A stretch of DNA of 64,000 bases from Phycisphaerales bacterium (lineage in GTDB: Bacteria; Planctomycetota; Phycisphaerae; WQYP01), in NCBI GenBank assembly GCA_027451365.1, contig DAIDJN010000034.1, forward strand, positions 1-64,000, written 5' to 3'. A program made the position numbers. Shown here piece after piece: positions 6,001-12,000 of the stretch; position 1 is the stretch's first letter, and every line of letters begins with the position of its first letter.

Positions 6001-9000
6001 CGCCATTATCCGCGATATAAGTGAACGCAAACGCATGGAAAATGAAATTCTGCAAATTTCCGAACGTGAACAGCGGCGTATCGGCCAGGACTTGCACGAC
6101 GGTCTTGGCCAATTGCTTACCGGCGCAGCGCTGCACGCCAAGGCACTGGGGGGACAGTTTGGGCGGACATCACCGGAGTTTTCGGCGCGTATGAATCGCG
6201 TGATTGAATTGATTAACGATGGGATTGCCCAAAGTCGCGAGCTTTCACGCGGTCTTCAGCCCGTAGCCGATTGTCAGGTGTTTCCCACCAGCATTCAGGA
6301 CCTGGCGGAACGCACGCAAACGCTTTTTAACATCGAATGCTCCGCCCGCTGTGAACCGCTGCCTGCGGGCGTATCGCTTTCCGACGCCACGCATTTGTAC
6401 CGCATTGTTCAGGAATCCCTCCATAATGCCGTGCGCCATGGCAAGGCCCGGCATATTCAAATCAGCCTGAAAGCCATGGGTCGCAATTTACGATTGACCA
6501 TCCGCGATGACGGTGTGGGGTTTCCTGAAGTCCGCGGCCGCGGGCTGGGGCTGCATATTATGAATTATCGAGCTGGCGCGATCGGCGCGTTGCTGGAAAT
6601 CCGTTCGACTCCGGGGCGAGGGGTCACGGTTATTTGTTCGCTTAGTCAGCCTGAAGTTCCCGTCCCGAAGCTGCCTGTTGAAAAAGGATAGATGCCATGA
6701 AAAAAACAGGTGAATCCGACCGGTCACGCCGGACCGCGGCGACAAAAGACCGAACTGAAAAAAAAACCGCCACCGCGGTGCCGAATCCAACCGCTAAAAC
6801 CGCGGGCCGGGATCTGCCACCGATTACCTTTCGGGCCAAACCCGGTCGACCGACTGTGGTCACCCCGTCCGGCAAAGCCAAGCCGCGCATTGTTATTGTG
6901 GATGACCACCCTATCGCACGGCAGGGTATTCGCCTGCTGATTGAAAGTTCCGACGATTTATGCGTTTGTGGCGAAGCCGCCGATGCCGACGGCGCGCTGG
7001 ACGCGGTGGCCAATTTCAAGCCCGACCTCGCGGTCGTGGATTTATCGTTAAATGGCAAACCGGGATTGGAATTGATTAAAGACCTGCGGTCAATGCACGA
7101 AAAGCTGCCCATTCTTGTGCTCTCCATGCACGATGAAACCATGTATGCCGAACGCGCATTGCGCGCCGGTGCCCGTGGCTACATTCAAAAGCAGGAAGCC
7201 ACGGATAAAATTCTGCTGGCAATCCGCCGGATTCTGGCTGGCGAAATTTATGTCAGCGATGCTATCGCCGGGCGCGTGCTCCGGCAGTTGGCGGGCGGCG
7301 GCAACCAGCCGTTGAAATCTTCACTGGAATTGCTGTCTGACCGCGAACTGGAGGTATTCGGGTTCCTTGGGCAGGGCAAACCGGTCCGGGAAATTGCCAG
7401 CATCCTGCATTTAAGCGCCAAAACAGTGGAAGCGCATCGCGAACATATTAAGGAAAAGTTGAATTTTGCCAGCAGCAACGAACTGCTGCGTTACGCCATT
7501 CAGGTGGGCATGGACAAATAAGAAATGCCATCGGTTTCCGTGCGCGCCGGTGGCGTTTATCGCTTAGCTCTGAAACGGATTCCGCCGCAATTGACGGCGT
7601 TCAGAGTCCGGTGAATTGATAAAAAAAATCTTGCCGTTTTCAACACCTGTTGCACAGAAATTCATGGGCGGCTTACCCACAAACGCCGCCGCAAACATAT
7701 TTGGCCGCCGATCAAAAATTTCCACAAGCCAGGCGCATCGTTATATAGGCGGGCACACCTTAACCCGCTGCGCCGCGCGACAATTCATAGCGCCTGACGC
7801 GGATCTTAATCGGGCCTAAAATGCATAAGACCTTGCGAGTGGCGTACCTCCATCGCACCCTGGTGCCGGGGGAAACGCCACGGTTTTTTCGGTTGCGTCT
7901 ACCCGCATCTGCACGGCTTTCTCTTAGGCTTTCCGCACGAATTCCCCAAGCGTCTTGCGACATGCTTCCTCTGACCCGTTGCTTAATTGCCCATCAGGAG
8001 CGGCATTCACCGCCTCGGCAACGGCCTTCATCGTGGCGGCAAACTCCACCTGCATCTGCTTAATAAACTCTTCTTCGTCGATTTTTACAAACCGATCCAT
8101 GACGTCTCTTTTGGTTATCCATTAAATTCCGCCCGATAATCGTATAGTGAAGAACGGCGAAAATGAATATGCCAAATATTATGTTTTTGGAACTTCAGGC
8201 TTTGGCGGGGACGGCTGCGGAGTAATTGCCGAAGCCGGAGCGGATGCTCCCGGAGGGCTGCCATTCGCCGGCTTTCCGGCAGAGACCACGCCGCGTTCTT
8301 TTTGAATTGCGTCAAAAATTTCCTGCCTGTGCACTGGAACCGTATTCGGCGCGTTAATGCCCAGTCGCACTTTATCGCCGCGAATATCCACAACCGTGAT
8401 GACAATATTATCACCAATCACGATGCTTTCATTGCGTTGTCGGGAAAGTACCAGCATCGTCTGACTCCTTGACAATTATTTCCATAAGCTCCACCTCCCG
8501 CGACACATCTATCCACTTCATTATAGCCTGCCGAAGTCGGAATGGCCTGTTGCCCGCGATTGACCGCCGGCCAGTGATTTTATGCCACAGCCTGCACCGC
8601 CCGAGGTGCCAAGGCTGCATCCAGGCCTTCGCTCCAGCGGTTCCGCCAGTGCGAAACGGCCGGTGCCGCGGCGTGCGCCGATACCTGCGCGGGCGATGGT
8701 TCCGCCGGAACAGGTCGCAATTGCAGGCCGCGACGAGAATGTTTGTTGATCACAATCGGCTCGTCGATATTCACCACCAGGTAATCGCCCGACTGTTCCA
8801 GGGCCAGGTAGGCGTGAAGTTCTCCATTTCGGCTGGTCCGCATAAGCTCAAGAATCTGACGGCTGGTGGGCAGTTTGAATCCTGGAACGCAGGCCGCGGG
8901 GTCCACCAGCCGCAGCGCAAACGCTCCATCGTCCACGCTTTGCAGCCAGATGGCGGCATCGGCGGAATGAAGTTCCAGTAAAATAAAGCGGCCTGTTGGC

Positions 9001-12000
9001 GCGGCATCATTGGCCAGACCGGCGATGTGGATGATCTGGTCGTCCATCAGTTCCAGCGGACCGAAGCGTGTCGTGTTAATAACCATGTGCTGAACTCCAT
9101 ATTCCTGAAAACCAAACCAACCCGTTTTTCGCGACCGATAAGAATCCAAGTCACGTTCCATTTTTAAGGCAATTAGATGGCCGGTGGGCTATCGGAAGCA
9201 TCACCAACTTATTATTCGTGCAAACGGACAGGGTAAGTCCAATAAAAGCGGCTGATAAGTCAAATATTCGTCTTAACGAATAAAAACAGACTTTTCGTGA
9301 ACTGTTACGCGCGGCAGGCGGCTTTTGGCGGCACCGCATTCCCATTATGGAGACGCCAAATGTGGTAATCCCGGCTACATAATGCTATGGTTAACGCAAG
9401 GACACTATCCGAATGAAAGAAGTTTCAGGAGAAAGTTCCATGGCATACTCTAAAATCAGCATTTTGGGGCTGTTGAGCATAATGGCAGTTGGCTTAGCAT
9501 TTGGCGGCGCTTCGGCGGCTGTAAAAGTCGGAGACCGCGTACAGGTCGGCTGGCAGACCGTAGGTGGTGGCCGTGTTACAGCCCGCATGTTGAAGGGTCA
9601 TTTACTGGTGGTGGATTTCTGGGCCACCTGGTGCCATCCGTGCATGATGGAAGTGCCGAACGTTGTGAAGGACTATAAAACCTTTTCGCCGCAGGGAGTC
9701 GGGTTTCTTGGCATCAGTCTCGATGACGATGTCACACAAATGGCTGCGGTGGCAAAGCAAAAGGGAATAGTCTGGCCACAGGTTTGCAGCGGCGCGGACT
9801 GGCATGATCCCACGGCAACAGCATGGGGTGTCCGAGGAATTCCGGATACGTTTATTCTAAGTTCGCACCGCAAAGTTCTGTGGGTCGGCTATCCGTCGAA
9901 TTTGGGCAATGCGCTAAAGATGGAACTCAAGACCCATCCGACACTTGTAATGTTGACGCGGCAATCGAAAAAATTAATCGCTTCAGCTACCACTCTGGTT
10001 CGGGACAGTCAGGACGTGGATGGGGCGATTGGCAAAATCAGCAAAATCAGTCCAAAGGTTACGCGCAACAGAAGCTTTCGGCACCCGATCCGCATGCTTC
10101 TTATGGCGATCCGAAAACAGGGAAACACAGCCGTCCGCAAGGTCCGAGCCAGTCACACCGCAATGACGAATCTGGCGAGACTTGTCGGAATGGGCCGCGT
10201 GCAAACCTGGCTTGGACCGATCCATTAATTGGCCCCGATTATGCGACTCCGTACGGGTGTCAAAATCCGGGGTTAAATTTGCGGCGCGGCTGTTGAGTAA
10301 GGACAGACATTCAGCTCAATATTTCGCAAAAATAAATCTGTGAATTATTGACTTATCTCGTGCGATAAATTAACCTGTCCAATTCGACTTTTCGCAAACT
10401 GAATCTCGATTCAATTCGAGATTCAGTCCGAAGGGGCGAACAACGGATGGCTCGTATATGACCAAGCAGCCTCCGCGTGATTGATACGGATGATACCTGG
10501 TATATGCCCATCGCAGCGGCGGAATACCGGTGAGGAATAAAGTTTTAATTCTGCGAATGGAGCGACTTTTATGTTACCCGTGGCAAGAACCAGCAAATCC
10601 CGCAAAGGAATGCGCCGCGCCCATCACGCCCTGACCGGCGTATCGACGGTCCGTTGCCCGCGCTGCAATCAGCCGAAACTTCCGCACCGCCTGTGCGGCG
10701 AATGCGGATATCTGAATCGCAGCCTTTCACTGGCCACTGCCGCGGAAAAGGCCTGATTTTTATGGGCGCACCGTGCAGCTGCCGCTGCGTCCGGGTGTTT
10801 CTGAATACTCCTGTGCGGGGGTTCGGATTGAATTTTCTGTTTCTCTTTCAGGGCATTTGATTCGATGCGCATCGCCATTGATGCCATGGGCGGAGACCAC
10901 GCGCCGGAGAATATCCTCCAAGGAGCGTTGGATTCTCTTGATCTCTTGGACTCAAACGACGAATTGATTCTGGTTGGCAGGCAAGAGGTAATTGACCCTC
11001 GGCTTCCACCGACAGCCAGCAGCGGCGCGACCGTGCGGGTTTTGCACGCCTCCGACGTCATCGCCATGGATGAATCCCCAGTGGATGCCGTGCGAAAAAA
11101 ACGTGATAGTTCCATTGTGAAAATGGTCAAGCTGGCGGCGGGTGGCGGAGCTGACGCAATTATTTCCGCCGGCAATACCGGCGCTCTGGTCGCCGCGGGC
11201 GTGCTTATGTTAAAAGGGCTGCCGGGCGTGGAAAGGCCGGGTATTGCCTGCACGGTGCCCACGCCGCATGGAGTTTTCATGCTGTGCGACGCCGGTGCCA
11301 ACGTCACGCCGAAACCGGCTCATCTGCATCAATATGCCGTTCTGGCCAGTGTGTATATGCAGGCACTGCACCATATCGATAATCCGCGTGTGGGACTGCT
11401 GAATGTCGGAACTGAAGAGGAAAAAGGCACGCCGCTGGTAAAGGAAGCTCGCGTGCTGCTAGATAATGACAAATCCCTTAATTTTGTGGGATTTGTGGAG
11501 GGGCGGGACCTGTTCAAAGGCGTGTGTGATGTCGCCGTGACCGACGGTTTTACCGGCAATATCATGCTTAAGGTGATGGAAGGCATGAACATTTCGTTCA
11601 TGACAATGCTGCAGGATGCGGCGCGTGAACAAAGTGCCACCGCCTTGGCGGACCTTAAGCCAGTCCTTTCATGTGTTTCCAAACGCTATGACCATGAAGA
11701 ATATGGTGGCGCACTGCTGCTGGGCGTTGCGGGCCTGTTTTTCAAGGTACATGGTTCGGCCGGCCCGCGGGCCATTCGTAATGCCGTCCGTTCGGCAAAA
11801 GAAGCCTCGCGGCTGGATGTCAATACACGCATTGTGCAGCGCCTCGCCCCGGCGATCGCCTGACCGGTGGCGGAATTGAGTTAATCGTGGTAGGGTTCTG
11901 CAACCGCGGCGGCGGTTTTAGTCCGCGAAAATCGACCTGACCCATCGGGCCGATGGCGGCGGAACCCTGAAGAGGAGAAAATGCGGACATGCCTCGATTT

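Follow-up and report, generated by a model that had tools for sequence, protein, structure and literature searches.

What does a FliW-CsrA pair do in a bacterium that has no flagellum? The two genes ordinarily adjust flagellin synthesis, and to our knowledge no input of the FliW-CsrA switch other than flagellin is known. In the literature FliW figures as a gene belonging to motile bacteria (PMC7652899). The window analyzed here, a stretch of 64,000 nucleotides from a Phycisphaerales bacterium, carries fliW beside csrA in a genome that lacks a flagellum, as the initial annotation had it: no flagellin is encoded, there is no match to FHIPEP (FlhA) or FliG_C in the genome (93% complete), and tblastn with seven proteins from a relative's flagellar operon finds nothing in it at E 0.01. 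The initial annotation held that the retained switch must answer to another signal or partner. The best explanation as a whole, to which we assign a probability of about one half, is that a CsrA blind to FliW would lie beside a dispensable FliW that damps it weakly at most, with no input signal.

The features of the locus are:
9095-9098, minus strand: GGAG, ribosome-binding site of fliW, read from the sequence
8580-9086, minus strand: fliW, ATG at 9086 and stop at 8580, 168 amino acids, PF02623 45.8 bits (profile 15-109)
8458-8579, minus strand: spacer and csrA leader, 122 nt, with AAGGAG at 8465-8470 and five GGA in the final 100 nt
8179-8457, minus strand: csrA1, 92 amino acids, PF02599 89 bits
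7924-8100, minus strand: truncated ORF of 58 amino acids outside the module, with no Pfam match and no Atlas hit

Thus fliW does lie directly upstream of csrA. The interval first assigned to the pair (7924-9086) holds both genes, but 7924-8100 is an unrelated ORF that we take to be insertion-sequence-like. A longer copy, 86% identical, lies elsewhere in the genome (C30:57321-57596), and among the fetched loci only that of the window has the ORF. A promoter scan of 7500-9500 gave one site against 1.8 expected, and TATAAT-like hexamers in the fliW-csrA spacer do not align across genera. From three RNA runs two short pieces were recovered, less than 90% alike.

FliW is encoded by 30 of the 45 genomes of the order, directly upstream of csrA1 in every case, and its scores divide just as had been reported, with 119-131 bits in the 12 flagellated genomes and 28-52 bits in 18 without flagella. 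Flagellin_N and FHIPEP are found in the same 12 of the 45 genomes, and CsrA in 43. The flagellated relatives carry a complete operon, flgK-flgL-fliW-csrA-flagellin. In a tree the flagellum-less genomes group together as a single clade (support 1.0), whose sister is the flagellated clade; the 18 FliW holders therefore go back to a single flagellum loss, a number that the initial annotation had left open. The present pair would be the remnant of the ancestral operon after that one loss of the whole flagellum. Within the flagellum-less clade at least four losses of fliW have left csrA1 in place, in one genome (G032) by a clean start-to-stop deletion that leaves csrA1 intact. A profile built from the 18 diverged proteins found no further diverged FliW in the 15 FliW-negative genomes, and nine csrA1 loci held none either. 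A horizontal origin of the diverged FliW is not indicated, as a branch with support 87-93 sets all 18 apart, although the branches are long.

A second csrA (C59:16886) and a FliA/WhiG sigma factor (C17:42625-43425), which had been counted with the retained pair, are indeed present in the window genome. However, sigma-28 scores over the cut-off in 41 of the 45 genomes, equally in genera without FliW, and both genes occur across the order irrespective of FliW or flagella, so that neither is part of the retained module. This rules out sigma-28 as a co-retained partner of FliW. The second CsrA is excluded as its target, since it lacks Asn55 and is retained where FliW is missing.

The FliW of the window clade is no pseudogene. 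None of the 18 diverged frames contains a stop, no copy is broken, and GGAG or AGGA stands at the equivalent ribosome-binding place in all 18. Purifying selection is relaxed, codon models giving dN/dS of 0.08-0.2, against 0.02-0.04, with 2dL of 32-174 against neutrality. Together with the retained fold, this contradicts the neutral decay that had been a concern, and dN/dS so far below 1 indicates that FliW does something without flagellin. In g1 and g12 dN/dS is near 0.1, a strong constraint for a minor role, and this speaks against our preferred explanation.

Could FliW be functionless all the same, its frame staying open because stops or misfolding upstream of csrA are harmful, until a clean deletion removes it? 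The deletion in G032 and the lack of broken copies would fit, as would the rate of change. Diverged FliW evolves several times faster than its flagellated counterpart and is the fastest-evolving state seen (relative to RpoB and RpoC, 1.5 in flagellated genomes, 9-11 on the genus stems and 2.5-8.6 within genera). But neutrality is rejected by the codon models, and FliW survives in five genera whose RpoB and RpoC are 77-88% identical, a span well beyond what a harmless deletion would be expected to need. We consider this explanation very unlikely.

The window CsrA1 has the conserved RNA-binding family core, H43, R44 and I51 included. H43 and R44 are invariant in all 18 CsrA1 proteins from genomes with a diverged FliW, and dN/dS of the core is 0.00-0.07. 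Position 55, however, is Arg and not Asn (codon 8293-8295), and a low-complexity tail replaces the conserved extension. All 27 CsrA1 of flagellum-less genomes having the gene are without Asn55 and without the conserved helix that follows it, and Asn55 is kept in the CsrA of all 12 flagellated relatives. FliW binding needs N55 in B. subtilis (bioRxiv 2020.07.02.184341), C. jejuni (PMC7829508) and G. sulfurreducens (PMC13407953). The switch in the window clade is probably broken, because CsrA has lost the residue gripped by FliW. Of the proposal of a switch retained for another signal or partner, what stands is a constrained and folded FliW; against a working switch are the absence of N55 from both CsrA proteins and the repeated loss of fliW.

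We suggest that CsrA1 lost Asn55 and the helix on the branch where the flagellum was lost, and with them high-affinity binding of FliW. It may now act as a free-standing GGA-binding translational repressor, which probably limits its own synthesis through its GGA-rich leader. FliW, still folded, would bring a slight benefit, most likely touching CsrA weakly via the 104-123 strand and damping it at a fixed level, with nothing to release the damping, and it would be in the course of being lost from one lineage after another. For a residual contact, N55A cuts the affinity of CsrA for FliW only 10-fold in C. jejuni (PMC7829508), I51 is still present, and within g1 and g11 no stretch of FliW is better conserved than 104-123.

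The GGA in the csrA leader are candidate sites for CsrA autoregulation. Five or more GGA in the last 100 nt precede 58 of 1762 long ORFs in the genome. Shuffling this G-rich stretch gives an expected 3.3, so the excess is modest; flagellated relatives carry 3-6. A GGA-density scan of the genome for a Csr-type sponge RNA, which has little power, gave no stand-out among the matches listed.

The window FliW lies well over the curated PF02623 cut-off (25 bits), and phmmer matches it to 5DMB with E 7.7e-7. In a structure model residues 1-128 adopt the FliW fold (pLDDT ~90 in the core), and a disordered Ala/Pro tail (residues 129-168, pLDDT <50) replaces the canonical C-terminal strand. Foldseek matches the model to 5dmb_A with E 7.8e-8 and TM 0.76, and the top six matches are all FliW (TM 0.68-0.77 by target). 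Numbering by alignment to 5DMB chain A, from B. subtilis, the residues needed there for CsrA binding are P26, F58, N108, A111 and Q124. The window protein retains N108 (as N106) and Q124 (as Q122), an observation that runs counter to our preferred explanation; F58 is Leu and A111 is Glu109. P26 and A111 are also changed in the flagellated relatives (to Leu and Gly), so these positions cannot be scored. Over the 18 diverged proteins N108 is kept in seven, Q124 in 11 and F58 in three. The 104-123 stretch is best conserved within g1 (93%) and g11 (83%); it is also structural core, and varies between genera whereas the CsrA core does not. A complex prediction for FliW with a CsrA dimer scored 0.02 (mark 0.32) and is given no weight here.

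These contact positions bear on two alternatives, both of which we think improbable. The switch might still work through a co-evolved interface, CsrA R55 facing an acidic FliW 108-109, with another protein or signal replacing flagellin. Asp occupies the match to B. subtilis 110 in g1, in four of five g14 and in L144 and L174, always next to CsrA R55, and no aligned FliW linked to an N55 CsrA has it; fliW is directly upstream of csrA1 in all 18 genomes and under purifying selection. Yet R55 occurs without that Asp in g9, g11 and g12, R or K55 is found in all nine CsrA1 from genomes without FliW, and FliW itself has been lost repeatedly. The adjacency is ancestral, and the genomes and loci of the order offered no conserved neighbor or co-retained gene as input. 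Alternatively, FliW could be re-used apart from CsrA, binding another protein such as a sigma factor. Constraint persists although the contact points of both known partners are gone, substitutions at 59, 60, 66, 69 and 97 common to most flagellum-less genera point to a change on the stem, and in g1 and g9 the tail carries a conserved short Trp motif. The tails of g11, g12 and g14 lack it, however, and the genera, only 15-35% identical in FliW (about 22% to flagellated orthologs), have no new surface in common. The order-wide sigma-28 likewise argues against it.

In another planctomycete class FliW occurs without flagellin in 59 of 201 genomes, and all 20 flagellin-less loci read have Asn55 and a canonical FliW, often alongside a filament-less export gate (fliF, short fliG, fliOPQR, flhBA, flhF, fliA). 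Several of these genomes with an intact-looking pair are assembled as single chromosomes. In the class to which the window belongs, the idea that the remaining families without a flagellum merely drop FliW did not stand: most families lacking FliW have flagellin. As a natural control, loss of flagellin alone leaves the FliW score level (median 100 bits without, 103 with flagellin), and loss of N55 lowers it to 57-85 bits with flagellin and 33-40 without. Against a strict link of N55 loss with FliW drift, G243 has CsrA I55 beside a canonical FliW. In three flagellated Planctomycetia (L121, L136, L169) the fliW-linked CsrA has R55 and FliW keeps N108 and Q124; in this phylum, then, R55 may be compatible with binding, a point against our preferred explanation.

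Judged from sequence, a functional FliW with a new input would fit the intact flagellin-less genomes better than the window clade. We tentatively raise a broader scheme, itself rather unlikely, in which FliW-CsrA outlasted flagellin repeatedly in planctomycetes and a protein other than flagellin now titrates FliW, possibly an export-gate substrate where N55, N108 and Q124 are intact; the window clade would be an end state, its export gate gone and FliW having either a rebuilt Arg55-acid contact or a new partner. Literature searches brought up no paper that treats FliW in planctomycetes lacking flagellin, and published distribution tables may already include such genomes.

Planctomycetes display the module at all stages of being dismantled, so that the constraints on FliW can be separated: flagellin loss leaves it unchanged, and N55 loss allows it to drift. 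They offer a natural series for asking how CsrA broke free of the flagellum and came to regulate generally. A second FliW input becomes testable in those genomes that lack flagellin but have a pair of intact appearance; the window pair holds the least promise, as it comes from an uncultured organism and is probably uncoupled.

The closest known system is Hag-FliW-CsrA of B. subtilis (5DMB), C. jejuni and G. sulfurreducens, with homologous FliW and CsrA, fold and gene order alike, and present as a complete operon with flagellin in the flagellated relatives. The window genome differs in having no flagellin or export gate and a gap of 122 nt between the genes; its CsrA lacks N55 and the extension, and its FliW the last strand and F58. 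Sigma-28 in 41 of 45 genomes here recalls a survey, the accessible part of which reports that 41% of the genomes from non-motile bacteria have a FliA match, and contains no occurrence of FliW or CsrA (bioRxiv 2024.12.05.626484). In C. difficile clade 5, according to the accessible part of that report (PMC11898703), the regulators of fliC-fliW-csrA also outlast motility. The FliW of C. difficile can bind a second partner, TcdR, a precedent both for FliW acting without motility and for its re-use. In clade 5, however, a retained flagellin is still expressed and the proteins are conserved, whereas the window clade lost its flagellin long ago and its FliW has diverged far from the flagellated orthologs.

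The fliW and csrA1 genes lie on the reverse strand, separated by 122 nt, and csrA is approached convergently by a pair of signaling genes.

5183-7521, forward strand: PAS/HisKA_3 kinase and LuxR-type response regulator, convergent with csrA
8179-8457, reverse strand: csrA (csrA1), 92 aa
8580-9086, reverse strand: fliW, 168 aa, PF02623 45.8 bits

The section 7924-8100, which the initial annotation had included with the pair, contains an unrelated ORF. The kinase-regulator pair is not conserved beside csrA1 in the relatives compared. A 201-aa protein with no Pfam match is convergent to csrA1 in genera g1 (G019), g6, g12 and g14 (L040:4738-5340, reverse strand). 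The copy in our genome is on a different contig (C26:78650-79249), and therefore the locus in the window has been rearranged.

Profile searches of this genome with FHIPEP, FliG_C and flagellin gave no match, nor did tblastn with seven flagellar-operon proteins of the relative G007, bearing out the reported absence of a flagellum. The earlier counts are also reproduced, with FliW in 30 of the 45 genomes of the order and FHIPEP in the same 12 of 45 as Flagellin_N; CsrA is found here in 43 of 45. In flagellated relatives the gene order is flgH-flgI-orf-flgN-flgK-flgL-fliW-csrA-flagellin (three loci compared, one annotated), and in 30/30 fliW-bearing genomes of the order fliW lies directly upstream of csrA1. 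A tree of RpoB and RpoC, comprising 40 of the 45 order genomes and five outgroups (a marker is missing in G005, G015, G020, G034 and G039), places genera g1, g6, g8, g9, g11, g12, g13 and g14 together in a single clade without flagella (support 1.0), the sister of which is a flagellated clade (support 1.0). All 18 diverged FliW therefore derive from one event. Genus g15, the first branch in the tree, lacks flagellin, FliW and csrA1, and is a second flagellum loss.

No fliW is found in g8 (0/5), g13 (0/2), g6 (0/1, qualified by an assembly that reaches just 460 nt upstream of csrA) or the genome G032, and csrA1 is kept in all four; csrA1 was not seen in six of the 33 flagellum-less genomes. In G032 the fliW ORF is deleted from the start codon to the last codons (L039:4860-4900, compared with L046:4373-4903 in G038), leaving the ribosome-binding site and csrA leader in place. 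Because the deletion is clean and its flanks are 82% identical to G038, this absence is not a binning gap.

The structure model of FliW has a confident core (residues 1-128) with a disordered tail, and matches solved FliW. Within the tail (window 8583-8702, reverse strand) a short Trp-containing motif is conserved among the homologs from g1, and the g9 tails end similarly. Diverged FliW from different genera are 15-35% identical (median 22), against 61-86% among flagellated genera, while the same comparison for RpoB+C gives 77-88% against 81-95%. The increase in rate was sustained, with no single burst. Over 16 within-genus pairs fliW dN/dS is 0.03-0.32 (0.09 for our genome with G019). Codon models give 0.08-0.2 for diverged fliW against 0.02-0.04, as grid estimates with dS partly saturated, and all four groups analysed reject neutrality (2dL 32-174). 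With low dN/dS and neutrality rejected, diverged fliW is not a pseudogene. A FliW without function would explain the clean deletion but does not account for how long the gene has persisted under constraint, and is very improbable.

In Bacillus subtilis N55 of CsrA contacts FliW Q124 and N55D abolishes binding, and FliW P26, F58, N108, A111 and Q124 are also needed (bioRxiv 10.1101/2020.07.02.184341). Campylobacter jejuni requires N55, with N55A lowering affinity 10-fold and no complex seen by gel filtration (PMC7829508), as does Geobacter sulfurreducens (PMC13407953). In all 12 CsrA1 of flagellated genomes N55 is present, and the stretch behind it is conserved. Beside diverged FliW, residue 55 is R in 17/18 and H in 1/18, and in the nine CsrA1 lacking FliW it is R or K; strong constraint persists in the CsrA1 core. 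The 18 diverged FliW retain N108 in 7, Q124 in 11 and F58 in 3 (5DMB numbering), with N108 and Q124 together in five, including that of our genome.

We give a probability of about one half to a broken switch, in which CsrA1 would be blind to FliW or nearly so and act alone. CsrA1 might be autoregulated through five GGA motifs in its own leader, where their excess is modest; in Escherichia coli csrA is known to regulate itself (PMC7652899). FliW would be retained for a slight advantage, the simplest being that it dampens CsrA weakly and at a fixed level. FliW Asp at 110, which occurs only beside R55 and in three lineages, is consistent with an interface that was rebuilt and takes a new input, but we think this unlikely. 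That FliW may have acquired a new partner has a precedent in Clostridioides difficile (PMC11898703), and is similarly doubtful. The N-terminal FliW stretches 3-11 and 22-28 protected by flagellin in B. subtilis (PMC6070490) rank among the more variable in g1 or g11, and 104-123, overlapping the sites of both partners, is the most conserved there. The proposal that the retained switch answers to another signal is weakened for the window: the pair is kept, but N55 is gone and fliW has been lost repeatedly.

Sigma-28 and the second csrA had been counted as part of the kept module, but both are order-wide. FliA/WhiG sigma scores over cut-off in 41/45 genomes, including FliW-less genera, and non-motile bacteria often have a hit to FliA (bioRxiv 10.1101/2024.12.05.626484). 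The second CsrA is a paralog lacking N55, read in 20 second or third copies from 18 genomes. It has an altered RNA-binding face, with D43 replacing H and W at 25 (C59:16886-17179 in our genome; L231-L250), and a C-terminal extension peculiar to it, which is conserved in flagellum-less and flagellated genera alike.

Among 201 Planctomycetia genomes (the class of G421; completeness of at least 92 requested), FliW occurs in 96 and Flagellin_C in 100: both in 37, FliW only in 59, flagellin only in 63 and neither in 42. The median FliW score is 103 with flagellin and 100 without. We read 20 loci, chosen for large contigs and 16 from one lineage, from 19 of the 59 FliW-only genomes plus G566 (weak flagellin hit only). 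In 20/20 fliW is directly upstream of csrA, and N55, N108 and Q124 are all present. In sets of five of these genomes neither Flagellin_N over cut-off nor a rod protein was found, and FHIPEP was present in 5/5. These stand-alone loci (L181-L200; G438, G451, G471, G475 and 16 more), several on single large contigs, stand in genomes lacking flagellin and rod genes, and are where a FliW-CsrA switch with an input other than flagellin would best be sought. A compact filament-less flagellar export cluster contains fliF, short fliG, fliO, fliP, fliQ, fliR, flhB, flhA, flhF and fliA:

L262:3115-13980, G451
L265:1641-14450, G415
L261, G586
L259:10742-19893, G135, reduced to fliPQR-flhA-flhF-flhG-like-sigma

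A non-flagellated case is reported in Lysobacter (PMC7688988). In our own class, where tallies include one unpublished genome (G277) on which alone no claim rests, family f21 has FliW in 17/20 and flagellin in 9/20 at E 1e-12. Eight f21 genomes, 96-98% complete, have canonical FliW without flagellin or FliG_C, with N55 in 4/5 loci read. The reverse state, flagellin without FliW, occurs in families f2, f3, f13, f22 and f24 (f13: flagellin 30/30, FliW 0/30).

Among the 80 closest csrA loci, seven outside the order pair fliW with an N55-less CsrA; their FliW score 84, 83, 84, 57 and 57 bits with flagellin present, and 40 and 33 bits where none was found. Five of those genomes have 36 CsrA copies, with N55 in 0/30 read. 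FliW scores independent of flagellin, together with low scores beside N55-less CsrA, suggest that FliW drift tracks loss of N55 more than loss of flagellin, over few independent events. G243, with CsrA I55 beside canonical FliW, is an exception. In G418, flhA matches fall in four pieces (C7:112882-114858), with a strongly diverged FliW and K55 CsrA elsewhere in the genome, which may reflect sequencing errors or the same decay still under way.

Planctomycetes are among likely FliW users (PMC4682653) and commonly have CsrA (PMC13443453); loss of flagellin is not mentioned in the available portions of either, and in that of PMC10746217 FliW served just as a query. We found no paper on FliW-CsrA without flagellin in planctomycetes in a search mostly outside subscription literature, supplements aside. 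The finding is real, and is a variant of a known system undescribed in the literature searched. An intact pair is kept without flagellin across the phylum, so the question of another signal is testable elsewhere. Compared with the Hag-FliW-CsrA switch, both proteins are family members, but its defining flagellin and N55 are both missing at the window's locus. The nearest precedent is C. difficile clade 5, where flagellin is kept.
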